A stretch of 64,000 nucleotides of DNA, from positions 1 through 64,000 of IMG/VR virus record IMGVR_UViG_3300032286_000505; one strand, given 5' to 3'. Positions 8,004 to 50,586 of the stretch are shown piece after piece (position 1 is the first letter of the stretch; each line of letters begins with the position of its first letter). A program made the position numbers and the translations under genes. The notes beneath the pieces were generated by a model. That model was not told the DNA's origin, did no database searches, and worked only from the letters and a program-made list of their open reading frames with translations. This stretch comes from a virus. Taxonomy: Duplodnaviria; Heunggongvirae; Uroviricota; Caudoviricetes.

Positions 8004-8969
8004 ATGACTAATAGAGCAGTAGCTCGTGTTGAGCTTGATGGTACTGCTAGAAGTAAAATTGCCACCGGCGTTAACACTGTCTTTACAAACAACAAAAAAA
8101 CTGCACACGAAGGATCTATTACCCAGCGAGGAAATGCAGTAGTTCAGGGCGCAACCACTGTGTTTGTGGAAAATAAACCCATTGCTCGTGCAGGTGATTT
8201 AGTAGCAAGGGAAGGTGCTATTTTACAAGGGTCAAATAATGTGTTTGCCAGTGATATACTGGCTGCTACTGTAGACGCAAATGCGGTAAGCGTAGTGGCA
8301 TTGAATACACAAGCCTATGTAGGTAATCCTCAGCAGTACAATAACACTGTTGCAGCTCAAAATGGAGTAAAACAGTATTACACTCCTGTGCCAGTAGCTG
8401 TCACTGCTCCTACAGAAAATAGAGACCCTGTAGCATCTTCAAATGATCTTATACCTTGGCTTGAAGCTAGGCTAGAAGAAGCAGATAGGGGATTATGGAG
8501 AGAATCTGGTCAACGTGGCAGGCCTAGTAATCCAAGAATTCTTAATGTTTGGACTGAATTGGGATTTTCGCAATCTAGTCCCTGGAACACTGATCAGACA
8601 GCTTGGTGTGCAGGATTTGTTAATTATGCATTAAAAAATTGCGGATACCGTTGGGCGCCCGAAGCTCTTACCGTTGCTTTTCAAAATAATCCCAAACGAT
8701 GGAAAGCTCAGGTTGTATCTATAAAAGATGCACAGCCGGGCGATATAGTACGCTGGAATTTTAGTCATGTGTCATTTATATATCAGATAGCAGGCGGTAA
8801 GTATTCTTTCGTAGGTGGCAATCAAACTCCTAAAGCAGTAGCAGGTAAAAATAATAATCCAGACGATGGAGACCTAACAGTAGCTTGGGGCGGTCCAACT
8901 GGTAAAACACCTATTTGGACTCCTAGCCAAGGCGGCATTACGATAGTTCTACGTCCAAGTAAAACTTAA
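8004..8969 (+). CDS. PAAR-like repeat domain fused to CHAP-type peptidoglycan hydrolase (putative tail-tip or needle lysin)
   Basis: N-terminus carries repeated G-N/S-x-V-F-x-x-x-K-P-I-A-R-A-G-D units typical of PAAR spikes; C-terminus carries a Cys...His pair (AWCAGFVNYAL ... SHVSFIYQIAGG) typical of CHAP amidase or peptidase. Confidence 0.6.
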   Translation: MTNRAVARVELDGTARSKIATGVNTVFTNNKKTAHEGSITQRGNAVVQGATTVFVENKPIARAGDLVAREGAILQGSNNVFASDILAATVDANAVSVVALNTQAYVGNPQQYNNTVAAQNGVKQYYTPVPVAVTAPTENRDPVASSNDLIPWLEARLEEADRGLWRESGQRGRPSNPRILNVWTELGFSQSSPWNTDQTAWCAGFVNYALKNCGYRWAPEALTVAFQNNPKRWKAQVVSIKDAQPGDIVRWNFSHVSFIYQIAGGKYSFVGGNQTPKAVAGKNNNPDDGDLTVAWGGPTGKTPIWTPSQGGITIVLRPSKT

Positions 8970-11020: not shown

Positions 11021-11522
11021 TAACACTATATCCTTTGTGCGGCTTACCTCTACCAACACATTGGTTATGAAAACTGTTGTAGTTCAAGCCGTTTGATTCA
11101 CACCAAGTTTTAAGAGATTTGATTGTTTCGGTAGTCCCGTCCGGATATACTACTGTAAATTCTTTAGCACTAGGATTTTTTTCGCCTTTGCGGGTGCCTA
11201 GTGCTTTAATTTTTTCCATATTATATTTCATACCTTTGTTCCCACCTTTAGATTGTCTTATAGCCCTGCCCTTTTTTCCTGCCGCAGATAACACTAGTTT
11301 TATATGTTCTTTATTAATAGAAAGTTTAGCAAGACCCTGCCACGCTAGATAATCTTGCCAATGTCCGTATTCTTCATACAATTTACGATGTGCCTCTGCG
11401 TGTTCTTCTGGACTTAGTTCTACTAGATTAGTAGTATCATCAGACCCTCCGCGATGCTTTGGAACAATATGGTGTTTATGTTTCATACATATATTTATGT
11501 CGATCCTAAAAGTTCTTGACAA
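11007..11522 (-). CDS. HNH homing endonuclease
   Basis: HHIVPKHRGGSDDTTNLVELSPEEHAEAHR His-Me finger motif; lone minus-strand gene in a + strand block. Confidence 0.8.
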   Translation of the reverse strand: MSRTFRIDINICMKHKHHIVPKHRGGSDDTTNLVELSPEEHAEAHRKLYEEYGHWQDYLAWQGLAKLSINKEHIKLVLSAAGKKGRAIRQSKGGNKGMKYNMEKIKALGTRKGEKNPSAKEFTVVYPDGTTETIKSLKTWCESNGLNYNSFHNQCVGRGKPHKGYSVIIVS

Positions 11523-11544
11523 GATTTACATATAAATATATAAT
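11516..11544 (+). promoter_or_regulatory. sigma70 promoter TTGACA-17-TATAAT
   Basis: Perfect consensus; fires into direct-repeat copy 2 and a non-coding stretch. Confidence 0.6.
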
Positions 11545-11545
11545 G

Positions 11546-11596
11546 TAAGTTAAGACTGTATGAAGTTGACAGAAACGGATTCAAGACGTGGGTTCG
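11546..11596 (+). repeat. approx. 50-bp direct repeat copy 2
   Basis: Matches 9125..9175; continues into a tRNA-like T-arm GTGGGTTCGACTCCCAC followed by CACCTCCACC. Confidence 0.7.
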
Positions 11597-11821
11597 ACTC
11601 CCACCACCTCCACCTAAGTGTATAAGGTATATTTAGGTGGGGGTGACCAGGCTATCGATTGGGTCAAGAGTACGGAAATGGACAGTCCGGCAATGTAGAA
11701 GCCGTTAGGATTGGGGATTCCCGGTTGCAGAAGCAAAACAAAGTAAATGCAAATGATGAAGCATTTTTGATGGCCGCCTAAATCGGCTATCGGGGCAGCT
11801 ATGCCTAGCAACAGGAAATAG

Positions 11822-11853
11822 CAGAAAGCACCTTCGGGTGCTTTCTTTATTGT
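11822..11853 (+). terminator. Rho-independent terminator (GAAAGCACC-TTCG-GGTGCTTTC followed by TTTATTGTT)
   Basis: 9-bp GC-containing stem, tetraloop, T-rich tail. Confidence 0.6.
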
Positions 11854-11987
11854 TAAAATCTATTGAGCTCATAAAAATATATTAGATAAAAGTTATTAAA
11901 AATGCTTGCTCTATAGTGTAAATAAAAGCATAATATAATTATAGAACACGAAGTTCTCAATATTCATTTCACACACAAGGAGAAGAT

Positions 11988-37397: not shown

Positions 37398-37934
37398 GTG
37401 AGCCTAAAAGACCTAACAGCAGAAAAACATAAACTAGCAGAATCAACTCCCTTTATGAAAGCGGTGTTTGCTCAAACTTTGCCGCGTGATATTTGGGTTG
37501 ATTGGACTTATCAGAAATGGTTGTTCTACGGTGCCATCGAAGGTGCCGCAGGTGCTAATCGTTTACTAGAAGACTTGCCAGATTTGCGTAGAGCATTTTA
37601 TTTGGCAATGGACTATGCAGAAATGAACGGCAGTAATCCACTACATGAGTTCCGCCCCGTTGTTGTAGACTACTACAACTACCTGCTATCCATTAGCAAA
37701 GACCCCGAGAAGATTATGGCGCACTTGTACACATGGCACATGGGCGACATGTTCGGTGGGCAAATGATTAAGAAGATTGTTTCAGGACCACATCGTAATT
37801 TAGAATTTGAAGACCCCCGCACACTAATGACCAACATTCGTGCTAAACTAGACGACAGCATGGGCGACGAAGCCAATGTGGCCTTTGACTGGGCAATACG
37901 CATGATGAGAGATTATGACAGTAGTTTGGGATAA
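37398..37934 (+). CDS. heme oxygenase
   Basis: YTWHMGDMFGGQMIKKIV parallels cyanobacterial HO1 YTRYLGDLSGGQILKKIA; N-terminal LKDLTAEKHKLAE helix. Confidence 0.7.
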   Translation: MSLKDLTAEKHKLAESTPFMKAVFAQTLPRDIWVDWTYQKWLFYGAIEGAAGANRLLEDLPDLRRAFYLAMDYAEMNGSNPLHEFRPVVVDYYNYLLSISKDPEKIMAHLYTWHMGDMFGGQMIKKIVSGPHRNLEFEDPRTLMTNIRAKLDDSMGDEANVAFDWAIRMMRDYDSSLG

Positions 37935-38586
37935 GATTAGTAAATTAGCCGCCGATATTACAGAACGATTTAATGCTAATGGTGAACAGACAACTACACC
38001 GTCTGAACATCAATACAATTGGCATAATACCCTGTGGACTAGCAATCGATTTCGCAGGGCACATGTTGAAATTGTAGATTTCCGAGAATCCCACAATATC
38101 TACATATTACACTGTACGGTATTTCCGCACTACAACGATCCGAGTCCTATCTACGGGTTTGATGCAGTATGCGGTCCCAACAAAATAACAGGTGCCTTCC
38201 ACGATTTTAGCCATGCTGGTGACCCCCATAGTTTTATGTATCTGTGGTTCAAAGCCCAAGTACACGGTCTAGAGTGGAACAAGCCCAGAGCGCTTCCTGA
38301 ATGGGCTCAGCAGATCTTTAGTCCGGCCATGGTAGCTGCTGGTAACCTACAGGACGAAGCAGAAATAGATCAATTGTGCAGTACAGCACTGACTACGCTA
38401 GATTTCTATTTAAAGAATGTAGGGTTAGATCAACAAGATACTGCGGATTTTCATATAGCACAGAACCGTTATTGCCATTGGCAAAAGCAGAATCCGCATG
38501 TAGTTAAGAGCATGATTAGCATGGGTGTGCCTGAATCTACTATGAAGAAGTTTGTTAGCGAAGTGTTGTTTCCTGAAGTTAGATAA
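37915..38586 (+). CDS. ferredoxin-dependent bilin reductase (PcyA/PcyX/PebS family)
   Basis: RAHVEIVDFRESHNIYILHCTVFPHYNDPSPIYGFDAVCGPNKITGAFHDFS and C-terminal QNRYCHWQKQ...VLFPEV align with the PcyA core and C-terminus. Confidence 0.7.
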   Translation: MTVVWDKISKLAADITERFNANGEQTTTPSEHQYNWHNTLWTSNRFRRAHVEIVDFRESHNIYILHCTVFPHYNDPSPIYGFDAVCGPNKITGAFHDFSHAGDPHSFMYLWFKAQVHGLEWNKPRALPEWAQQIFSPAMVAAGNLQDEAEIDQLCSTALTTLDFYLKNVGLDQQDTADFHIAQNRYCHWQKQNPHVVKSMISMGVPESTMKKFVSEVLFPEVR

Positions 38587-40463: not shown

Positions 40464-40835
40464 ATGGAAATACTGTTCTTACTGCTATTATTCCAAATCA
40501 AGCACTGGTACGCTGATTTTAAGATTCAAACCTACATGCAGACTGTAAAGAAGGGCGTGTGGTTAGATCCAATTGGCATGAGCCATACATGGGACCACGT
40601 TAAGTTTACTATTGTAGTCCTAGCAATCTTTTGGTTTATTCATCCAATAAGTTTATGGTCGGCACTATTAGTCATATTGCTAGAGGGCCCGTATCACTAT
40701 ATAATTGATTATACCAAAGTTAGATACGGTTGTAAAGATAATACCAAACCGTTATTCTGGAATCAGTTTGGCTTAGACCAATTAGCTCATCAAATATCTT
40801 ATCTTGCCATTGCGTGGTATCTATTAGTTTTTTAA
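40464..40835 (+). CDS. integral membrane protein (4 TM, 123 aa)
   Basis: Hydrophobic helices. Confidence 0.4.
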   Translation: MEILFLLLLFQIKHWYADFKIQTYMQTVKKGVWLDPIGMSHTWDHVKFTIVVLAIFWFIHPISLWSALLVILLEGPYHYIIDYTKVRYGCKDNTKPLFWNQFGLDQLAHQISYLAIAWYLLVF

Positions 40836-40903: not shown

Positions 40904-41389
40904 ATGAAAAAGATCGTAGTAGCATTAGGGGTATGGCTCGCACTAGCTGTAAATTCCGCAAATGCAGAGCTAGTTCAACAGTTTAAAAATCCAGCTTTTA
41001 GCGGTATTGGATACAGCAGTCATGTATTGACTATTGACAGTATCGAAAAATCACGCAAAGATGCAATTGAAGCTGATAAAAAAGCAACCATTGCTAGAGC
41101 AGAAGCTGAACTGCTAAACACACCTTTGAATAGATTCATGGGCCTATTTCAAAGCCAAGTTTATGCTCAACTTGCAACACAATTAAGCAATAACCTATTC
41201 ACAAATAAATGCGCTAATGCAGACGGCACTGCAATTCCGGGCTGTGTAAATCCAACAACAGGTAACTTTAATCTAGACGGTAATACAGTTACCTGGGCCA
41301 AAGCCAATGACAAAGTTACACTGACAGTTGTAGATGCCAAAGGCACTGTAACTCGAGTTATTGTTCCAATTGCTAGTTTCAGTTTTTAA
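40904..41389 (+). CDS. csgF: curli assembly protein CsgF-like
   Basis: Signal peptide followed by ELVQQFKNPAFSG, matching the CsgF N-terminus TMTFQFRNPNFGG; RBS AAGGGAG. Confidence 0.65.
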   Translation: MKKIVVALGVWLALAVNSANAELVQQFKNPAFSGIGYSSHVLTIDSIEKSRKDAIEADKKATIARAEAELLNTPLNRFMGLFQSQVYAQLATQLSNNLFTNKCANADGTAIPGCVNPTTGNFNLDGNTVTWAKANDKVTLTVVDAKGTVTRVIVPIASFSF

Positions 41390-41399
41390 GGAGTAAACA

Positions 41400-42248
41400 A
41401 TGAAAGCAATTAAATTATCCTTAATCACACTAGCCGCAGTGACTCTAGTAGGTTGCTCAACTGTACGCCCATTTGGCAGTACACAAATCAAAGAAGAAGC
41501 TCGAGTCAGTGAAACTATCAATAAAAGTTTTGTTGATGTTCCAAGTCCAGCAGGCCCAGCAGTCACTGTGGCAGTCTATGGCTTCAAAGACCTAACAGGA
41601 CAGCGTAAACCAAGTTCAACATTGAGCTTGTTTAGTACAGCAGTTACACAAGGTGCTGAAGCATACTTGATGAAAAGTTTACAAGAAGTTGGCAATCGTC
41701 AATGGTTCACAGTAGTTGAACGTGTTGGCCTTGACAACCTATTGAAAGAGCGTCAGATGATCAAACAGACACGTGAGATCTACGAAGGCGCAAATGCCAA
41801 ACCTTTACCTCCACTACAAATGGCGGGCGTTATTTTAGAAGGCGGCATTATTGACTACAACAGTAACACCTTAACAGGCGGAACTGGAGCACGTTGGTTA
41901 GGTATTGGAACACAAACAGCTTACACTCAGGACGTGGTTGTTATTAGTCTGCGTCTAGTAAGCGTACAAACTGGCGAAGTCTTAACTACGGTAACAGTGG
42001 AAAAGAATTTGCTCAGTACCGCCGATGGTGCAACAGCGTTGAAGTTTTTCAACCAGGCAACACAGGCGTTCGAATTTGATACGAGTCAAACATTCAATGA
42101 GCCGGGCAACTATGCCCTACGTTCAGCAATTGAGACAGCGGTTATCGAATTGATTAAAAAAGGTGAGCGTCAAAACCTGTGGAAATTCAAAGAGCAAACA
42201 ACTGAGTTGGTTCAAGACAATACCTCACTTGAAGAAAGCAAAAAATAA
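41400..42248 (+). CDS. csgG: curli secretion channel lipoprotein CsgG
   Basis: Lipobox LVGCS; VAVYGFKDLTGQRKP, FSTAVTQGAEAYLMKSLQ, WFTVVERVGLDNLLKERQ, VILEGGIIDYNSNTLTGGTGARWLGIG, LRLVSVQTGEVL align along the length of E. coli CsgG. Confidence 0.85.
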   Translation: MKAIKLSLITLAAVTLVGCSTVRPFGSTQIKEEARVSETINKSFVDVPSPAGPAVTVAVYGFKDLTGQRKPSSTLSLFSTAVTQGAEAYLMKSLQEVGNRQWFTVVERVGLDNLLKERQMIKQTREIYEGANAKPLPPLQMAGVILEGGIIDYNSNTLTGGTGARWLGIGTQTAYTQDVVVISLRLVSVQTGEVLTTVTVEKNLLSTADGATALKFFNQATQAFEFDTSQTFNEPGNYALRSAIETAVIELIKKGERQNLWKFKEQTTELVQDNTSLEESKK

Positions 42249-42284: not shown

Positions 42285-43079
42285 ATGAAAAAAACACTAT
42301 TAACAATTTTATTAGCCGCAACACTACCGGCTTTTGCACAGACAGCAGTATCTGCACCATCAGCACCTATTATTCCATCAATGACTACAGTTAGTCCTAA
42401 TGCAACAGCCGCATTGGCCATTGCTACTACTAACCGTGTCTTCATTGATCAAAGTGGTGCAAACCCTAATGTCAACATGACACAAGATGGTACAGGCAAC
42501 AAGGCAGGTTCAGCTGCTCGACCAGTATACCTACGTGGCATTGACCAAGTTATTGTTACCAGACAAGTTGGTATCAACAATGAAATCAATCTAGAAGTAT
42601 CAAACGATACTACTGGAACAGGTAAAGGTGCAAAGGTCACTATTCAACAATTAGGTGACAGTAACACGGTTGACGCGGCCTGCGGATACGGTTTTGCCAG
42701 TAACGGCACAACGGCACTAACAGGATGTAACAATGCTGATCTAAACTGGAAATTCAATACCGGCAGTGATAGCAATGTATTACAGTTCCGTGGATCGGGA
42801 ACAGATCTAAAGAGTGCAATTGATGTTACAGGTGATACTAACAAGTTCTATGTAGATACTATTGGTAATAAACACAGCCAGACTATCAAAGTAGTAGGTA
42901 ACACTAACGAGTTCAATATTAACCAACAATCGACTGGTGCAGCAGGATCTAGCATTTGGGTTGATGTTAATGGTGATGGCAACAAGTTTGCTATGAGCCA
43001 AACTGGAACTATTGATAACGTTATTAATATCAAAAGTGTAGCCACAAGCGGCACATTTAACATCACTCAGAAGAACTAA
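42285..43079 (+). CDS. secreted curlin-repeat protein (CsgA/CsgB-like)
   Basis: Signal peptide; repeated x-I/V-x-Q-x-G-x-x-N-x-x-x-V units (IDQSGANPNVNM, IQQLGDSNTV, INQQSTG, MSQTGTIDNV). Confidence 0.5.
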   Translation: MKKTLLTILLAATLPAFAQTAVSAPSAPIIPSMTTVSPNATAALAIATTNRVFIDQSGANPNVNMTQDGTGNKAGSAARPVYLRGIDQVIVTRQVGINNEINLEVSNDTTGTGKGAKVTIQQLGDSNTVDAACGYGFASNGTTALTGCNNADLNWKFNTGSDSNVLQFRGSGTDLKSAIDVTGDTNKFYVDTIGNKHSQTIKVVGNTNEFNINQQSTGAAGSSIWVDVNGDGNKFAMSQTGTIDNVINIKSVATSGTFNITQKN

Positions 43080-43088
43080 GGAGCGGCA

Positions 43089-44267
43089 ATGAGAGTTGCC
43101 TCTCTTATCATTGGCTTATTGGTAGCCAGTTCAGCTTGGGCGGAAATTGGTTCCGTTACAGAAGCCTCTGGAACTGCTATCATTAAGCGTGGTAAAGAAA
43201 CTATTCAAGTTTCTAAAGGAACTCTTATTGAAACCAACGACCGAGTTGAGACCAAAAACGGTAAGATTAAAATTGTTTTTAAAGACGATACTAATGTTAC
43301 CGTTACTGAGTCTAGTAGCTTAATCATAGATGACTTTGTTTATGATCCCAAAAGCGGTGCTGGAAAGCTAGGACTTAAAGCAGCCGCAGGTACGATACGC
43401 TATGTATCTGGCAACATTGCTAAAGATCCTAAGAATGTAAAAATCAATACGCCTACAGCAGCCATTGCTGTTCGTGGTACTGATTTTGTTATGGCAGTCA
43501 GTGAAACTGGCGCTAGTATGGTCATGCTGATGCCCACCTGTGAAATAGAACAAAATGTAAACTTAAAAGGTCTTAGCTGTGGCAGTGGTGCTATCGATGT
43601 AGAAACACCAGCAGGCATTGTTAAACTAAATCGCCCTTATCAAGCTACCCTAGTTGAAACACTAAACGGCATGCCCAGTCCTGCTGTAGTTGTTGCTCTT
43701 AATGGCATGGCTATTGGCAATAACTTAATAGTTAGTCCTCCACAAACAACTACCGGTATAAATGTTATTGCTGCTGCCCGTGCTGCCGCAGTAGCTACAG
43801 GTGATGCAAAGAAAGACGATAAAAAAGATAAGCGTGACGATAAAGAAGATAAAGATGACGCCAAAGAAGAACGTCAACATGCTGCCAATAAAGATAACGG
43901 TGGAGCAAATAAGTCACAGAAGCAAGGACGCGGATCTAACGACAACAGTGAAGAAGAGAAAACTAGAACTGCTGCCAATAGCATCGATCCTCCTACAAAT
44001 AAAGAAGTTGCATCTAGTGAATCTACAGCAATAGGTGATATTGAAAATCCCTACGTTAAGAAGTTATGGAAAGACAAAAGCGAAACGCAACAAGTTGGAT
44101 GGATGTATGAAAGTTTAAGTCCAAACAATCGTAACTATGCAAATATCGTTATGCCTTTAGACACTAAAGTTCAGGTTACTGTAACACAAGATATGCAAAC
44201 CAATCAATGGAACTTTGCTCCAGGCAAACCTATAGGACAGATTGTTATCAATCAGAACTTCAGATGA
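43089..44267 (+). CDS. secreted FecR-domain protein with charged low-complexity linker
   Basis: Signal peptide; IIKRGKETIQVSKGTLIETNDRVETKNGKIKIVFKDDTNVTV resembles a FecR/DUF4974-type beta sandwich. Confidence 0.45.
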   Translation: MRVASLIIGLLVASSAWAEIGSVTEASGTAIIKRGKETIQVSKGTLIETNDRVETKNGKIKIVFKDDTNVTVTESSSLIIDDFVYDPKSGAGKLGLKAAAGTIRYVSGNIAKDPKNVKINTPTAAIAVRGTDFVMAVSETGASMVMLMPTCEIEQNVNLKGLSCGSGAIDVETPAGIVKLNRPYQATLVETLNGMPSPAVVVALNGMAIGNNLIVSPPQTTTGINVIAAARAAAVATGDAKKDDKKDKRDDKEDKDDAKEERQHAANKDNGGANKSQKQGRGSNDNSEEEKTRTAANSIDPPTNKEVASSESTAIGDIENPYVKKLWKDKSETQQVGWMYESLSPNNRNYANIVMPLDTKVQVTVTQDMQTNQWNFAPGKPIGQIVINQNFR

Positions 44268-46345
44268 AAAAGATATTTCTAGCCTTAATGTTGTTATGTG
44301 CCAATGCATATGCCGACCTAACTGATATCAAGTTTGGTCAAAGCCAGATCGCTGATAGTCAGTGGAATGTCAACGCTTGTCTTAATACCACTACCTGCCA
44401 AATCTACAGTAAGAATCCAGGTACTGCCTATAAGATTCCTTGGACTAACGGGCAGGTATCTTGGGCCTCAGGAGACTATGTAAAATTCAGCTCTAGCGGT
44501 AATGGTTCCTTTCCTTATACAGCAACACAATATACAAATGCAGGCACAGTAAAATCCACATTGGGCAACGGTAAGATTGTCAATATGGGTCCTGACTATT
44601 TCTTTTTTGTAGGCAGTGACAACAACACAGGACAGTTATTCAGCGGCAGTACTGGTATGAGCGGAACTACTGGTGTTAGTTGGACTGGCACATTAAACCC
44701 TACAGTAGCACAGGCCAACGCTTATGCCAATGCTACATATTCTACAGTTCCTTTAACAGCGGGACAGACTGCTACAACTACGCCAAGTAGTCCTCCGCCG
44801 GCACCTCCTAATTTGGGTTTCGAAACAGGTAATACTAACTCATGGACTATTAGTAATACTACAGGTGCCGCAAACTGGGGCAGTGGTTCTGGCGCGGCAG
44901 TTGTTACAGGACTCCAGCATACACCTGACGGCGGAAAGTCCTGGACCGTAACTCCGTATGGAACTTATATGTTGAGTCTACAGCCAGGTAGTGGAGCACC
45001 TACATTTGATGCTGCAACTACTAGTCTAGGTTTGACTTCAGCACAAAATATAGCAATTAAAAATTTATTAACGCAACAGGCACAGACTAGTGGTGGCGAT
45101 CCAACTCCTACTAATGCCTCTTGGGTTAAGAGGGATATGTCCTTAAAGGCAGGTGTAACGTATTCAATTGCATGGCAGTATCTATCAACTGATTATACAC
45201 CATTCAATGACGGTAGTGTTATTACACTGGTTCACAAAACAGACAGTAGTAAAGTTCCTACACTAAACAACGCGGTTCGAAACTATTCCTTATTAGGATT
45301 TACCAATCCTGGAACAGGTGACTATTCTACCAACAGTTACGGATCAACTGGATGGCAGGTAGCAACATTTACAGTTCCAACTGATGGAGATTATAGTTTA
45401 GGATTTGCAGTTTTTAATCTTGGAGACACTGCTCTAAGTCCTATTTTACTAATTGACGAAATGCAGGGAACTACTATGTTAAACGGATCAGCGTTTAATC
45501 CAGTTCCTCCTAACCCGGGTACTGGCGCTCCAGCAACGGGTGGCGGTACAGTTGAACCTACTTGGCCAACAACTAGCGACATTACAGCAGGACAGACTAC
45601 ACAAAAAAACGCTGCCAAGACTCGTGTTACTAATATCCAATTAGGTAACTATGTTTATATTGATCAAAAGATTGGTAGCAGTAGTAATACAGTAACTATT
45701 GAACAAACTGGCAACTACAACAAGATTAGTGGGTTGGGTGGCGGAACTTACGCGGTGTCAGATGGTGACAGCAATACTATTAACATTAAGCAAGGCGATA
45801 CTTTGGGTAAAAACTTGATTGAGTTTAACATTGTAGGTAATACTAATAATGTCAGTATATGGCAAGCACGTAATCCTACAACAGGTTTACAAGATGGCAA
45901 CGAAAGTGGTGGACACTATCTAGGCCTAAATATAAACGGTAACACAAATAATCTATCATTAAAACAAAGTAACAACGGCGGAACATCAAGTGGACACTTT
46001 GCCTATGTTGATGTTACAGGTAACGGCAACAACGGGACATTAAACCAGCTAGGCAATGGTGAAAAAACATTCTTTGGTATTGTTAATGGCAACACCAATG
46101 TGTTTGATATTACCCAACAAGGTTCAGGCAGTTACTTTGATCTAAGTTTAACAGGCACCGGTCACAATGTCTCTGCTAACCAAAAAGACGCAGGAAGTCA
46201 CAAAGCCACAATCAACTTAACCAACGCTGGTGGTGCTAGCAATGTTACCCTAGTTCAACAAGGTGCTACAGCACAAAACATCAACATTACACAGCAGTGT
46301 GCTACATTATCCGGTTGCTCCGTAAGTGTTACACAAGGTCAATAA
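44264..46345 (+). CDS. large secreted protein with C-terminal curlin-like repeats (693 aa)
   Basis: Start moved to MKKIFLALMLLCANAYA (ATGA overlap with upstream stop); C-terminal third carries 10 or more N-x-x-x-V-x-Q-x-G-x-x-N units. Confidence 0.5.
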   Translation: MKKIFLALMLLCANAYADLTDIKFGQSQIADSQWNVNACLNTTTCQIYSKNPGTAYKIPWTNGQVSWASGDYVKFSSSGNGSFPYTATQYTNAGTVKSTLGNGKIVNMGPDYFFFVGSDNNTGQLFSGSTGMSGTTGVSWTGTLNPTVAQANAYANATYSTVPLTAGQTATTTPSSPPPAPPNLGFETGNTNSWTISNTTGAANWGSGSGAAVVTGLQHTPDGGKSWTVTPYGTYMLSLQPGSGAPTFDAATTSLGLTSAQNIAIKNLLTQQAQTSGGDPTPTNASWVKRDMSLKAGVTYSIAWQYLSTDYTPFNDGSVITLVHKTDSSKVPTLNNAVRNYSLLGFTNPGTGDYSTNSYGSTGWQVATFTVPTDGDYSLGFAVFNLGDTALSPILLIDEMQGTTMLNGSAFNPVPPNPGTGAPATGGGTVEPTWPTTSDITAGQTTQKNAAKTRVTNIQLGNYVYIDQKIGSSSNTVTIEQTGNYNKISGLGGGTYAVSDGDSNTINIKQGDTLGKNLIEFNIVGNTNNVSIWQARNPTTGLQDGNESGGHYLGLNINGNTNNLSLKQSNNGGTSSGHFAYVDVTGNGNNGTLNQLGNGEKTFFGIVNGNTNVFDITQQGSGSYFDLSLTGTGHNVSANQKDAGSHKATINLTNAGGASNVTLVQQGATAQNINITQQCATLSGCSVSVTQGQ

Positions 46346-46781
46346 ATACAGCATAGAAGAACATTATGCACAAATTTATTGTATGAGAGCAAACGAATTT
46401 ATTAGTGAACTAGTTAATCCCGACGTGCAGGATATGCGTTTCCACCATAAGCAAGCAATTGGGGATTTTGTTTATACTGCTACTACAGAAATAGAACCCT
46501 ATCACAAAACTAAAATGTTAGTCATTAGAGCACTTGACGGTAAAGAAGCAATAGGCAAGGCCAAATTTTATATTGATCACGGTGATACATTAACAGCGGC
46601 ATTGACTACAGTTCGACCCGAATACCAAAAGCACGGCATTGCCAGCACCATGTATGCGTATGCTAAAATGTTAGGCAACGACATTGAGCCTAGCAAGAAT
46701 CAACTACCGCCCGGAAAGGCCATGTGGCGCAGTTGGAAAAAATCCGGCGATGCTAAATTCCTACTTCCTGACAAAAAATAA
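46326..46781 (+). CDS. GNAT-family N-acetyltransferase
   Basis: RPEYQKHGIASTMYAYA resembles the GNAT acetyl-CoA-binding motif A. Confidence 0.45.
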   Translation: MLHKVNKYSIEEHYAQIYCMRANEFISELVNPDVQDMRFHHKQAIGDFVYTATTEIEPYHKTKMLVIRALDGKEAIGKAKFYIDHGDTLTAALTTVRPEYQKHGIASTMYAYAKMLGNDIEPSKNQLPPGKAMWRSWKKSGDAKFLLPDKK

Positions 46782-46786
46782 ACTTT

Positions 46787-46830
46787 GAAGATCTTTCCAA
46801 AATCTTCATTTGTGATCATTTTGGATCACC
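46787..46830 (+). terminator. tandem hairpins (TGAAGATC...ATCTTCA; GTGATC...GATCAC) with T-runs
   Basis: Directly after the GNAT gene. Confidence 0.4.
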
Positions 46831-47279
46831 TGTATACTGTATAAACACACAAATACACTATACAGCGAGACATAAGGTTGGCAGGCCGGGCTACAATTCT
46901 GCTGAAAAATCCGTTCTGATGTGTGACGGTAATCATTCTTTTCCTCCGCAAAAGGCTTCAACTCACTACCTCAAGCCTTGACTTGAGATGCCTTAAAAAC
47001 GCCAGTCCCTTGACTGTTCACGTTTGAGTTGTCGTAACAGGTTGCACAATATTTTCCAATACGTCCATGAGAGCAATGACACCGAAGCTCTCTTAAAAAT
47101 CGTAGTAGGTTGGGTAAGGTACAGAGCCCAGAGACGTGGAATACAAATACCTACTGTCCTAGTGTGGCTGAAGCAACTCAGCAAACATCTCATGCGGCAT
47201 CCTTAACAGGGTGTCGTATGGCCTCACAATCTAGCAAAACTTCAAAATTCTTCCTCTGAGGAATTTAATAAATATCTGT
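46831..47279 (+). other. long GC-elevated untranslated leader with hairpins and a 13-bp palindrome TTCCTC-T-GAGGAA at 47262..47274
   Basis: 480 nt without a credible ORF, upstream of the CHASE2-cyclase gene. Confidence 0.4.
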
Positions 47280-49346
47280 ATGTTTAAAAAGCTCTTACTT
47301 AATCCTTGGACTGCATTGTTCACCCTCGCACTAGTTCTACTAGTTAGATTCATTGATCCCTCATTTGTAGAATCAGTTCGACTTAGGTATTTTGATCAAT
47401 TAATTACCAGTCAACCCACAAATACTGCTCCCGTACACACAGTCAATATAGATGAAGCTACCTTAGACAAATATGGGCAATTCCCATTCCCTAGAGGAAC
47501 TTATGCAAACATTATTAAAGACCTTTATGATAGAAATGCTGGACTTGTTGTGTTCAATATCCTTATGCCTGAGCAAGATAGGTTTGGTCAAGATAATCAA
47601 TTGGCCCGAGTGTTAGAGAAATATCCTACTATACTCCCGGAGTTGGGAAGCATATCAGGAAAGAACAAAACATTTGGTTCTGCTGTACAGGTAATTGGTC
47701 AAGATCCTGGCGGTGCACTAGTCGACTATCTAGGCATTATTGCCAACGTCCCTGTTTTAGAAGAACGTGCAGCCGGCGTGGGCATTGTAAATACCTTTCC
47801 TGAGATCGACGGTGTTGTTCGTCGTATGCCGTTGCTTATTATGAGTAACAATACTGTGCATCCTAGTATAGCATTAGAGACGCTACGCATTGCCGCAGGT
47901 GATACAAAGATACAGGTTAAAATAACAGACATGGGCGTAGAAGCTCTACGTGTTCCAAAGTTGAGTAAAATTACTGTAGATTCGTTAAGCCGAGTTTGGA
48001 TTGATTGGGCACAAACTCCTAAAGAACATAGCTTGGCTGATTTGCCAAAAGACTTTAACGGTGAAATTGTTATAGTAGGATTAAGTGCAGCAGGGCTGGT
48101 TCAACCAGTTGCTACTGCCCGTGGCGAGGTGTGGCCGCAATATTTGCAGGCCAGTTTGCTAGGCACAATGCTTAACGGCAAGACTATTCAACGTCCGAGC
48201 TATGCAGATGATTTAGAAATTGTTGCCATCTTACTAGCAGGCGTTGCTTTACTGTTATTAACAAGGTGGACTTATGTTGGACTTGCCGCAGTGGTTGTAT
48301 TGGTTGGTGGTGGTGTCGCTGGCAGCATCTATGCTTACAGCAATTTTTTATGGTTATTCGATACTACTGCCTTTGCAGTTGGCACAACTTTGGTCGCTTT
48401 GCATGCCTATGGCGTCAAGTTTGTAAGTGAGTTCTTACAGAAGTCAGCAATCAAAAAACAGTTTGGAAGTTATGTGAATCCTGTTATTGTGGAGCGCCTA
48501 CAAAAAGATCCTAGTTTTATCAAATTGGGCGGTGAGAAAAAAGACCTTACAGTTATCATGAGTGACATGCGTAACTTTACAGGACTAGGTGAAACCTATG
48601 GTGACGACGTTGTAGCATTTACACAAACCATGAACCGTTACATGACTGCCATTGCGGAGCCTATCCTACGCAACAACGGTTGTTTGATCAAATTCATTGG
48701 TGATGCGTCATTACACGTACACGGTGCTCCTATTCAAGAAGAACAAGATCCTGACCACGTGTTGGCCGCTGTTCGTACTGGTTTAGAAATGTTACACGCC
48801 GTTGAACTGTTTAACATTGAACTTACCAAAGAAGGCAAACCTTTGGTAGGTTGCGGACTAGGTATCAACACAGGTCCTACACTAATTGGTAACATTGGTA
48901 GCAAAGACCGTTTTGGTTATGACGTACTAGGTGACAGTGTAAGTCTTACTGCTCGACTAGAAGGACAGACCAAGAATTACGGTGTGTTGATTATCATCAG
49001 TGAATTTACACAGGCTAGAGTAGGGGACAACTATTTTACAATCGAACTTGATAACATTGCTGTTAAAGGTAAGAGCATTGGAGTTACTATCTACACAGTG
49101 TTCTACAATCCAGATATCACAGTGGCAGCAGATTGGATCATGGCTCGTGATATGCACAATGGTATGTTGACTTATTATCGTCAGCAAAAATGGGATCTTG
49201 CCATTGAACTATGTCAAGAACTTACAGGAGAGTTTGATGGTAAGATGGATGATTACTATACGCTATGGCAAGAACGTATTGCTGAAATGCGCTCTAGAGA
49301 TCTTCCTGCAGATTGGGATGGTACTTACAGGGCTACGTCAAAGTGA
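47280..49346 (+). CDS. CHASE2 sensor domain, TM helices, class III adenylate/guanylate cyclase
   Basis: N-terminal TM then periplasmic CHASE2-like domain; three TM helices; cyclase core KDLTVIMSDMRNFTGL...FIGDASL...LGDSVSLTARLEG. Confidence 0.75.
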   Translation: MFKKLLLNPWTALFTLALVLLVRFIDPSFVESVRLRYFDQLITSQPTNTAPVHTVNIDEATLDKYGQFPFPRGTYANIIKDLYDRNAGLVVFNILMPEQDRFGQDNQLARVLEKYPTILPELGSISGKNKTFGSAVQVIGQDPGGALVDYLGIIANVPVLEERAAGVGIVNTFPEIDGVVRRMPLLIMSNNTVHPSIALETLRIAAGDTKIQVKITDMGVEALRVPKLSKITVDSLSRVWIDWAQTPKEHSLADLPKDFNGEIVIVGLSAAGLVQPVATARGEVWPQYLQASLLGTMLNGKTIQRPSYADDLEIVAILLAGVALLLLTRWTYVGLAAVVVLVGGGVAGSIYAYSNFLWLFDTTAFAVGTTLVALHAYGVKFVSEFLQKSAIKKQFGSYVNPVIVERLQKDPSFIKLGGEKKDLTVIMSDMRNFTGLGETYGDDVVAFTQTMNRYMTAIAEPILRNNGCLIKFIGDASLHVHGAPIQEEQDPDHVLAAVRTGLEMLHAVELFNIELTKEGKPLVGCGLGINTGPTLIGNIGSKDRFGYDVLGDSVSLTARLEGQTKNYGVLIIISEFTQARVGDNYFTIELDNIAVKGKSIGVTIYTVFYNPDITVAADWIMARDMHNGMLTYYRQQKWDLAIELCQELTGEFDGKMDDYYTLWQERIAEMRSRDLPADWDGTYRATSK

Positions 49347-50497: not shown

Positions 50498-50569
50498 CTG
50501 GCGTTAGGTAAATGGATATACCAGGAGCCTTCTAAGCTCTTATTCCAGGTTCGATTCCTGGACGCCGGA
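50498..50569 (+). tRNA. tRNA-Arg (anticodon TCT)
   Basis: Hand-folded cloverleaf: acceptor CTGGCGT/ACGCCGG, D-arm GGTA/TACC, anticodon loop CTTCTAA, T-arm CCAGG-TTCGATT-CCTGG, encoded CCA. Confidence 0.7.
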
Positions 50570-50586
50570 CCAATATAAAAATAACA

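Follow-up and report, generated by a model that had tools for sequence, protein, structure and literature searches.

Two questions are raised by this locus: why a phage should carry a membrane-bound sensor cyclase, and what occupies the 498 nt between the stop of the upstream ORF (46781) and the cyclase ATG. The window (the whole stretch of 64,000 nt of viral DNA that was analysed) comes from a T4-like phage; it carries the T4-like markers RIIA, NrdAB and NAMPT, together with 23 tRNAs and a two-piece tmRNA. Zero matches were obtained by blastn in cultured-phage records (n=50,697) with the module region and the RNA described below, and a query of contigs for the exact 688-aa cyclase protein returned zero records. 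In the original prediction, 46831–47279 was read as a long, structured leader of the cyclase gene. From the sequence comparisons described here, it is likely that the locus holds two neighbours instead, a receptor adenylate cyclase that ends a gene module and a free-standing RNA gene that would act in trans, with any read-through from one into the other being incidental.

The cyclase gene and its parts are:

47280–49346, + strand: CHASE2-sensor class III adenylate cyclase, 688 aa (ORF, Pfam, PHROG 35576 with E 2e-198, hydropathy)
about 47301–47360, + strand: TM1
47325–48248, + strand: CHASE2
48210–48449, + strand: TM block
48537–49076, + strand: cyclase domain
from there to 49343, + strand: C-terminal helical extension

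CHASE2 (PF05226) was matched at residues 16–323 (128.8 bits, E 3.6e-37) and Guanylate_cyc (PF00211) at residues 420–599 (55.7 bits against a cut-off of 21.9, E 6.2e-15) in the HMM search that the original prediction had proposed. Hydropathy analysis placed an N-terminal TM helix at about residues 8–27 and a hydrophobic block at residues 311–390, which fits three helices, two of them above the 1.6 cut-off and the third weaker. CHASE2 sits between the N-terminal helix and this block. The order that had been claimed (N-terminal TM helix, CHASE2, three TM helices, class III cyclase core) thus agrees with both Pfam and hydropathy. Judged by these matches, the protein, carried by a phage, joins a CHASE2 sensor to a class III cyclase.

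Absence of the metal-binding Asp residues, the mark of a pseudo-cyclase, was not seen. The best-matching solved structures are Synechocystis Cya2 (2W01, E 1.5e-25) and P. aeruginosa CyaB (3R5G, E 1.5e-20); their metal Asp residues align with D429 and D475 of the phage protein and their Arg with R559. In class III cyclases, Lys with Asp or Thr is the ATP signature, and Glu with Cys, Gly or Ser the GTP signature. The aligned substrate residues of the phage protein, K471 and D548, are of the ATP type, whereas Cya2, a guanylate cyclase, has Glu/Gly. All of D429, K471, D475 and R559 are conserved without exception among 40 phage homologues, with sequences down to 35–40% identity, which points to selection on the active site.

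The transition-state position is unusual. The column that is Asn in Cya2, CyaB, the bacterial homologues and 19 of the phage homologues is Ser (S555) in all 21 members of the window's clade, where it is coupled with Asp (D548) as the substrate residue; in the sister phage clade, as in the bacterial homologues, the two positions hold Thr/Ser and Asn. In a mammalian cyclase the Asn-to-Ser change lowers kcat 30–100 fold, so the phage cyclase with S555 could be low or altered in activity. The coupled Ser and Asp, and their departure from the pair kept in the sister clade and in bacteria, would suit a cyclase domain that is weak, inactive or re-specified, serving as a receptor or scaffold or making another cNMP aimed at host cNMP-based immunity. 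We consider such a role unlikely, since the invariance of both metal Asp residues, the substrate Lys and the Arg points to selection, and since Lys with Asp is classically the mark of an ATP-using enzyme, where the guanylate cyclase Cya2 has Glu/Gly. The preferred assignment is that of an adenylate cyclase.

The gene itself is not new. It is already annotated in cultured phages, and it closes a conserved CsgF/CsgG/curlin/FecR module. The original prediction had missed both the annotation and the module membership. Upstream of the cyclase the window contains:

40464–40835, + strand: DUF3307 membrane protein, which opens the module block (Pfam DUF3307 E 6e-08; PHROG 2470, membrane protein)
40904–41389, + strand: CsgF-like protein with signal peptide (Pfam CsgF E 2.4e-11; N-terminus MKKIVVALGVWLALAVNSANA)
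41400–42248, + strand: CsgG-like outer-membrane lipoprotein (Pfam CsgG E 1.1e-50; lipobox LVGC)
42285–43079, + strand: 264-aa secreted protein in CsgB-like position (Curlin_rpt E 0.0011, below the Pfam cut-off)
43089–44267, + strand: FecR-domain periplasmic protein (Pfam FecR E 9.5e-10; signal peptide)
44264–46345, + strand: secreted repeat protein of about 693 aa in CsgA-like position (signal peptide MKKIFLALMLLCANAYA)
46326–46781, + strand: GNAT-like ORF, a lineage-specific insertion (Acetyltransf_1 E 3.4e-4, borderline)

Both CsgG and CsgF of curli (type VIII) secretion were found in the window by Pfam, and signal peptides are present on all module proteins. The 264-aa protein occupies the position of the 'curlin' genes in phages Melnitz and HTVC008M. 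The likely start of the repeat protein is the ATG at 44264, overlapping the FecR stop. Its 712-aa ORF gave zero Pfam domain matches; orthologues in the same position carry curlin repeats and a lectin-like domain in the relative L019 (Curlin_rpt 4e-11 and F5/8 type C), in HTVC008M (Curlin_rpt and PA14) and in Melnitz, the curlin repeats passing the cut-off in all three. The GNAT-like ORF is missing from the corresponding position in all three, and the segment that links the curlin-type gene to the cyclase is hypervariable (two small basic ORFs in L019, the GNAT-like ORF in the window).

HTVC008M (AGE60353, a Pelagibacter phage) and Melnitz (QZI94833, a Methylophilales phage), which are also T4-like, encode full-length homologues of the cyclase with 35% and 41% identity respectively. 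In their 'curli operon' too the cyclase comes last, after CsgF, CsgG, curlin-repeat, FecR and curlin-repeat genes. The Melnitz enzyme has Asp and Ser as in the window, while that of HTVC008M has Ser and Asn and is without the C-terminal extension. In both phages the cyclase begins 8–15 nt after the previous gene, whereas in the window the GNAT-like ORF and the RNA gene lie between. The papers on the phage curli operon say nothing of the cyclase or FecR (PMC7029224, PMC9004378), and discussion of the puzzle that this operon poses has so far left its last two signalling genes out of account.

The same pair of genes is found in bacteria. Alphaproteobacterial cyclases (S. meliloti CyaD1/CyaD2 type, Ruegeria pTHAF33_a, Paracoccus pAMI5) share the domains over 84–94% of the length at 28–30% identity. 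In Ruegeria and Paracoccus, which have the closest full-length homologues, the gene immediately before the cyclase is a FecR gene, and in S. meliloti a FecR gene adjoins the cyclase; the window FecR protein matches the FecR neighbour of the Paracoccus cyclase (phmmer E 2.9e-13). A DUF3307 gene, such as opens the block in the window, is also a neighbour of the FecR-cyclase pair in Paracoccus pAMI5, where it comes after the pair. Unlike the phage module, the bacterial cassettes have no CsgF, CsgG or curlin genes within 6 kb. The FecR-cyclase core of the phage module matches this alphaproteobacterial cassette, which is of the S. meliloti CyaD type. The window FecR gene is co-directional with the cyclase but 3 kb upstream with other genes between, and this lack of direct adjacency speaks against our preferred explanation.

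In S. meliloti, CHASE2 restrains the cyclase, and CyaD1 without CHASE2 makes cAMP constitutively (PMC5498481). There the cAMP is read by Clr; no such reader or other cNMP-binding protein was found among the ORFs of the 64-kb window by phmmer with two seeds (CRP and a Paracoccus cNMP-patatin), a search of low sensitivity whose outcome counts against the proposal that follows. We propose that the 688-aa protein serves as a receptor adenylate cyclase in the inner membrane and completes a phage envelope module whose other members are DUF3307, CsgF, CsgG, the periplasmic FecR-domain protein and the two curlin-type repeat proteins, which are secreted. Its gene is the last of the module. During infection the exported proteins would assemble in the host envelope. 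The periplasmic CHASE2, probably with the FecR-like protein, would read this assembly or the state of the envelope, and would gate dimerisation and activity of the cytoplasmic domain, which would then produce cAMP from ATP. With a FecR-like protein and a CHASE2 receptor cyclase as constant members, probably derived from a bacterial receptor-cyclase cassette, the module can be tested as a device that signals from the envelope to cAMP, in aquatic phages that are very abundant.

The gap in front of the cyclase contains the following features:

46810–46838, + strand: candidate sigma70-like promoter of the RNA gene, TTGTGA-17-TATACT (consensus scan)
46864–47242, + strand: unclassified structured RNA gene, conserved core of 379 nt (homologues, covariation, no Rfam match)
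46880–46884/46899–46903, 46959–46965/47025–47031, 47060–47065/47133–47138 and 47069–47074/47087–47092, + strand: helices of the RNA (covariation)
47102–47110/47149–47157, + strand: pseudoknot of the RNA
47112–47129, + strand: invariant hairpin of the RNA
47176–47186, + strand: twin word M1 (ACTCAGCAAAC), single-stranded
47229–47240, + strand: twin word M2 (ATCTAGCAAAAC), single-stranded, close to where the core ends at its 3′ side
47251–47263, no strand assigned: 13-nt palindrome TTCCTCTGAGGAA, followed by TTTAAT, at the site of a two-hairpin 3′ domain in other copies

The fold comprises 13 helices, including the pseudoknot. In 34 copies, 96.7% of the cells were paired, against 37–45% in slid controls, with double changes in 37 of the 64 pairs. 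When 100 distinct copies were compared, some of them very divergent, 90.7% of cells were paired (39–44% in slid controls), compensatory changes were seen in 43 of the 64 pairs, and double-change cells numbered 863 against 137–243 in the controls. About 13% of the paired cells are G-U, which fixes the + strand as that of the RNA. Single-sequence folding was no better than shuffles (z = -1.03 on the + strand, +1.29 on the - strand). The idea of a structured region was therefore sound as far as the comparative data go, whereas the stability of the single sequence is at shuffle level on both strands.

An alternative reading takes the gap for a decayed coding gene or a non-functional spacer, conserved through recent common descent only, and the hypervariable junction in which it lies would fit such an origin. 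The claim that the region is free of ORFs held on comparison: 60-aa and 66-aa ORFs in the gap are open in just 5 and 6 of 34 homologous copies, respectively, indels among the copies are not multiples of three, and no reading frame is conserved. A 21-mer is invariant, and the 13 helices are kept by compensatory changes across the 100 distinct copies. Decay or a spacer thus appears extremely unlikely, and is to a large extent already refuted by the comparative data. On the same evidence, 46864–47242 is a structured RNA gene of about 380 nt that matches no Rfam 15 family.

The Rfam scan of the leader that had been suggested, which covered RNase P, tmRNA, group I/II introns, 6S, GOLLD, ROOL, HEARO, OLE and riboswitches among the families of Rfam 15, returned no family for the RNA: none at E <= 10 on the window element (491 nt, lax filters), none at E <= 5 in seven other loci of the RNA, only chance-level matches at permissive thresholds on 2 kb of the window, and, at the gathering threshold over the whole window, tRNAs and tmRNA and nothing else. 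On these results it is very unlikely that the RNA belongs to a known class (RNase P RNA, a tmRNA piece, a group I intron, 6S, GOLLD/ROOL/HEARO) and is so divergent or permuted that covariance models miss it, even though these phages are rich in tRNAs and have a tmRNA in permuted form, and the RNA adjoins the tmRNA gene in three loci (L046, L065, L067). Short resemblances to E. coli RNase P RNA (UAAGGUAC, ACAGA.CCC, CUAGAUGAAU), which we take as leads only, count in favour of a known class; the helix order given by covariation, compared informally, is in our estimation unlike the P1–P4 architecture of RNase P, which we count against it.

RNAs of a comparable kind have been described. The GOLLD and ROOL RNAs are likewise large, ornate and strongly covarying with optional GNRA-capped hairpins, and are likewise phage-encoded near tRNA or tmRNA genes with function unknown (PMC12286853); their Rfam models gave no sequence or structure match to the present RNA, which is about half their size. 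Candidate structured RNAs of the DNAVirus_X set were predicted from IMG/VR, the same data source, by the same type of evidence (covariation in viral intergenic regions); they measure 29–151 nt (PMC10690425), so that, compared by length, at most fragments of the 380-nt RNA could be among them.

The distribution of the RNA bears on the choice between a leader and a separate gene. It was confirmed in more than 160 phage and metagenome stretches, single-copy per contig and in varying positions. The cyclase is its commonest neighbour (11 of 39 IMG/VR copies, 22 of 119 metagenome loci) and always on the same strand, so a functional link may exist. The RNA lies directly 5′ of a same-strand cyclase in the window, in the lineage of L048, L056, L057 and L106, and in similar metagenome loci. 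In the window its core ends 37 nt before the cyclase ATG with no canonical terminator between them, so the RNA there may physically belong to the cyclase transcript. All this is what a cis-acting 5′ leader of the cyclase (riboswitch, attenuator or operator) at 46831–47279 would predict. Most copies, however, have no cyclase within 4 kb, in some phages the two are kilobases apart, and in four loci (L005, L044, L053, L058) the RNA lies 52–104 nt downstream of the cyclase stop. The gene that follows the RNA is frequently encoded on the other strand, an arrangement that speaks against a riboswitch or an operator. Of 36 relatives, 33 have a cyclase that begins at -44 to +53 nt relative to the ORF before it and is without any leader; the other long gaps all contain the RNA. 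With a promoter motif of its own and, in many copies, a terminator-like 3′ hairpin of its own, the RNA is quite improbable as a dedicated leader, and the view of the gap as a conserved 5′ element of the cyclase had to be given up. The elevated GC content ascribed to the region also did not stand out (0.43, the mean for the window being 0.405 +/- 0.039; of stretches of the same size, 29% have as high a GC content or a higher one).

The palindrome, which had been put forward as an operator, is present; it precedes the ATG by 16 nt, where 6 nt had been stated. The window has no second copy of it and 107 related loci have none, and six-bp inverted repeats in the gap number 3 against 1.2 +/- 1.4 in shuffles. 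Since the palindrome is peculiar to the window, lacks conservation, does not exceed chance and received no terminator score, it was rejected as operator and as terminator; its lack of conservation weighs against the leader as well.

The preferred explanation of the 498-nt 'leader' is the insertion of a GNAT-like ORF and of a separate RNA gene between the module and the cyclase; a long 'leader' can thus turn out to be an independent gene. Widespread and single-copy in related uncultured T4-like phages, the RNA would most likely act in trans, whether as a ribozyme, as a ribonucleoprotein or as a structured RNA that is stable. Weak termination in the window probably lets its transcription run into the cyclase, and such read-through would be an accident of arrangement, with no dedicated regulatory leader involved. 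At the level of consensus a sigma70-type promoter belongs to the RNA gene itself: in about 20 of 39 copies ..ATTTTGG.TA..TGTATA[AC]T precedes the core by 12–57 nt. That about half of the copies are without it counts against the preferred explanation. A CRP-like site in the promoter was discarded on inspection (half-site spacing wrong, asymmetric in most copies), as was a hammerhead motif that other copies have in their 3′ hairpin (required core missing).

The twin words evolve in concert. At their four variable columns M1 and M2 are the same in 97–100% of the 100 distinct copies, though varying between lineages, and their mutual information equals the full column entropy. No complementary partner was found within +/-400 nt of each copy or in local tRNA/tmRNA genes. 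A tmRNA-like tag, read in frame from M1 to M2, was rejected on inspection, the frame being lost in other variants. To our knowledge, twin co-evolving words are not a feature of GOLLD or ROOL. They are probably twin contacts for one external partner. We suggest tentatively, as a possibility that we would not call the expected outcome, that the RNA belongs to a hitherto undescribed class of large, folded phage RNAs and that its twin words guide to or dock one external partner, a nucleic acid or a symmetric protein, and that it may be tied to the cAMP module, for example by responding to the cyclase output or by acting at the same stage of infection. RNAs of this kind, here about 380 nt, pseudoknotted, with at least 40 covarying pairs, no Rfam relative and an unusual word pair that evolves in concert, have yielded new ribozymes, ribonucleoproteins and guide RNAs.

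Two objects meet at this junction. The cyclase (688 aa, 47280-49346, + strand) adds a new member to a phage family that is already annotated and has a clear bacterial counterpart. The stretch in front of it, originally predicted to be a cyclase leader, is best read as an independent, widespread, pseudoknotted RNA gene of no known family, and is the more novel of the two. The mechanisms suggested for both are drawn from domain architecture, gene order and comparative sequence data.

ORF calling on the window returned the cyclase reading frame exactly as originally predicted. Both domains proposed for the product were matched in Pfam, CHASE2 at residues 16-323 (E 3.6e-37) and a class III cyclase domain at residues 420-599 (E 6.2e-15). 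Hydropathy analysis revealed a single hydrophobic helix at the N-terminus and a second hydrophobic region, at 311-390, compatible with the three further helices expected; together with the Pfam domains, these predict the usual CHASE2 topology, sensor outside and cyclase domain inside.

Among cultured phages, Methylophilales phage Melnitz and Pelagibacter phage HTVC008M were found by tblastn to encode full-length homologues that carry the annotation adenylate/guanylate cyclase. For analysis of the active site, the window protein was aligned with 39 phage homologues and the nearest solved domains, Synechocystis Cya2 and P. aeruginosa CyaB. The metal-binding D429 and D475, the substrate Lys K471 and the transition-state Arg R559 were invariant. 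Loss of the metal-binding Asp residues had been named as the mark of a pseudo-cyclase; with both present, the protein is by that measure not one. Asp occupies the second substrate position (D548, codon at window 48921). A Lys and Asp pair is the classical ATP signature of class III cyclases, and the proposed check of substrate-specifying residues thus gives the ATP type. In contrast, Cya2, a guanylate cyclase, has Glu and Gly at these positions. The canonical Asn is replaced by Ser (S555, codon at window 48942). Coupling was perfect across the phage cyclases: 21 sequences, including that of Melnitz (41% identity), have Asp+Ser and the remaining 19, including that of HTVC008M, have Thr/Ser+Asn, the combination also seen in the bacterial homologues checked. 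S555 is a derived, conserved peculiarity of the Asp+Ser clade that may affect catalysis.

In Melnitz and HTVC008M, co-directional CsgF, CsgG, curlin-repeat, FecR-domain and curlin-repeat genes are followed by the cyclase as the last gene, 8-15 nt after the preceding one. The window carries a block of the same kind, with a signal peptide on every member:

40464-40835, DUF3307
40904-41389, CsgF
41400-42248, CsgG
42285-43079, weak curlin-repeat protein, 264 aa
43089-44267, FecR
44264-46345, secreted repeat protein, ~693 aa

Orthologues of the last protein carry curlin repeats joined to discoidin or PA14 domains. The cyclase family forms its own PHROG and is very abundant (7,518 scored candidates at E <= 1e-20; the best 120 of these are each at least 79% identical). 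Cyclase and FecR are mentioned nowhere in the two papers on the phage "curli operon" (PMC7029224, PMC9004378). The recognition of FecR and the receptor cyclase as constant parts of this operon, and of the Asp+Ser active-site variant, is what the present analysis adds.

The nearest full-length bacterial homologues found on large replicons were from Ruegeria, Paracoccus and rhizobia, with a FecR-domain gene directly before or adjoining the cyclase. The order on Paracoccus pAMI5 (locus L109, 1-8491) is TPR protein, FecR, cyclase, DUF3307. By these parallels, the phage module appears to interleave a bacterial FecR-receptor-cyclase cassette with a curli-type secretion cassette. In S. meliloti, the CHASE2 cyclases CyaD1/D2/K supply the cAMP regulator Clr, and CyaD1 is constitutively active once its CHASE2 domain is removed (PMC5498481). 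Just upstream of the pAMI5 cassette are a GNAT gene and a cNMP-binding patatin-like phospholipase, which could be a cAMP-activated effector; a GNAT-like ORF also lies beside the cyclase in the window.

The cyclase ATG lies 498 nt past the upstream ORF. The original prediction regarded 46831-47279 as a GC-elevated, structured leader. Its GC was ordinary (0.43 vs 0.405 +/- 0.039 in the window), the single-sequence fold was no more stable than shuffles, and no Rfam 15 family matched in the window or at seven other loci. The predicted palindrome is present; it lies 16 nt rather than 6 nt before the ATG, occurs at chance-level frequency and is unique to the window. The distance from the preceding co-directional ORF to the start of the cyclase ORF is -44 to +53 nt in 33/36 informative relatives. 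Long gaps elsewhere (643-671 nt) were seen only in the related loci L048, L056 and L057, each holding the RNA element of the window, an element found elsewhere at varying positions. On this comparison, the "leader" sequence is not conserved ahead of the cyclase, and its reading as a leader is not supported. This junction is a gene-exchange hot spot. In L019, a close relative (cyclase 86% identical), two small basic ORFs, one DUF6321, occupy the place of the GNAT-like ORF and RNA (L019 7381-7997). L048, L056 and L057 also have a 12-bp inverted repeat, TTCGTGTTAACC ... GGTTAACACGAA, enclosing two copies of CCGCAAAAATATGG, ~20-190 nt past the RNA core and 5' of the cyclase start; this could be a regulatory element of its own, in a lineage that likewise has the RNA ahead of the cyclase.

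The features of the RNA region are as follows:

46810-46838, sigma70-like promoter TTGTGA-17-TATACT, 5' of the core
46864-47242, + strand, conserved RNA core
47176-47186, single-stranded word ACUCAGCAAAC
47229-47240, single-stranded word AUCUAGCAAAAC
47251-47263, palindrome

Homologues of the RNA were located 7 kb 3' of the cyclase (L003), immediately behind its stop codon (L005) or 3.6 kb off (L008), each in ORF-free DNA. An invariant 21-mer (47112-47132) retrieved 46 IMG/VR stretches and a degenerate pattern 54; a metagenome scan gave at least 120, and 119 of those listed were profile-confirmed. No contig in any of these sets carried a second copy. Species-representative genomes gave two matches, both short MAG contigs, and a sequence search of cultured phages gave none. 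One RNA-bearing contig (L099) was binned with a Polynucleobacter MAG.

Thirteen helices emerged from RNAalifold combined with a search for covarying diagonals, among them a pseudoknot (47102-47110/47149-47157 crossing 47060-47065/47133-47138). In 34 copies, standard pairs filled 96.7% of cells (slid controls 37-45%), 37/64 pairs had changes on both sides, and double-change cells numbered 366 vs 26-52 in slid controls. In 100 distinct copies, where MAFFT indels blur two short helices, the values were 90.7% (39-44%), 43/64 and 863 vs 137-243. The AT-rich, very divergent L100 group kept the helices checked by eye with different sequences, and about half of the copies have an optional GNRA-capped hairpin. 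No reading frame was conserved among the copies. G-U pairs make up ~13% of paired cells, which would be A-C on the opposite strand; this places the structured RNA on the + strand.

The two single-stranded words match each other yet vary between lineages, their shared-core variants including GCAA, ACAA, GCGA, GAUG, CAUG and CAUA. Across the 100 distinct copies, the four variable columns were identical in 97-100%, mutual information equalled the full column entropy, and no RNA column showed Watson-Crick covariation with them. A complementary site was found neither within +/-400 nt nor in local tRNA or tmRNA genes. This concerted evolution points to one putative external partner shared by both words.

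The promoter motif of the window recurs upstream of ~20/39 copies, together with a conserved ATTTTGG spacer and TGTATA[AC]T. In the window, the -35 and -10 of this promoter flank an inverted repeat, GTGATC-N6-GATCAC (46815-46829). It resembles CRP half-sites but was rejected as a CRP site, as the spacing is wrong and other copies conserve it only partly. In many copies, the RNA extends 25-35 nt beyond the core into a GA-rich-loop hairpin and then a terminator-like hairpin with a U run (L063, L058, L082, L069, L008 and others). The first hairpin, with a covarying stem and GA...GA(A) loop (e.g. GCUCU-GAGUGCAACGAA-AGAGC), resembles a protein-binding site of the kink-turn or loop-E type. The window copy has the 13-nt palindrome and TTTAAT in place of this 3' domain, and a terminator scan found none there. 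Transcriptional read-through into the cyclase is thus plausible in the window.

The commonest neighbor of the RNA was the cyclase, within 4 kb in 11/39 IMG/VR copies and near it in 22/119 metagenome loci among the matches listed, always on the same strand. Their order varies: the RNA precedes the cyclase in the window and L048 type and follows it in the L005, L044, L053 and L058 types. The majority of copies had no cyclase nearby, only 3/40 cyclase loci had the RNA within 8 kb, and the gene after the RNA was frequently on the opposite strand. The window layout, with the RNA 37 nt 5' of an Asp+Ser-type cyclase, was seen in no other copy examined. The association was read as shared residence in a hypervariable region; a functional link is possible.

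The phage is T4-like (RIIA, NrdA/B, NAMPT, 23 tRNAs, two-piece tmRNA). Of the tmRNA models, the betaproteobacterial one gave the highest score (121 bits), a hint of a freshwater Burkholderiales/Methylophilales-type host. Other features of the window were:

8004-8969, ORF with PAAR-like and baseplate-hub/tail-lysozyme matches, distant from the other structural genes
11502-11872, two-piece (permuted) tmRNA gene, tag ANDEAFLMAA
14719-18139, NAD salvage pair: cytidylyltransferase/NUDIX fusion (PHROG E 4e-76) and nicotinamide phosphoribosyltransferase (2.5e-164)
37915-38586, ferredoxin-dependent bilin reductase homologue (Pfam E 3e-20), in what does not appear to be a cyanophage
50498-50572, isolated tRNA-Arg(tct)
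57730-63484, array of 22 tRNA genes with Asp, Lys, Gln, Glu, Ser and Arg species duplicated
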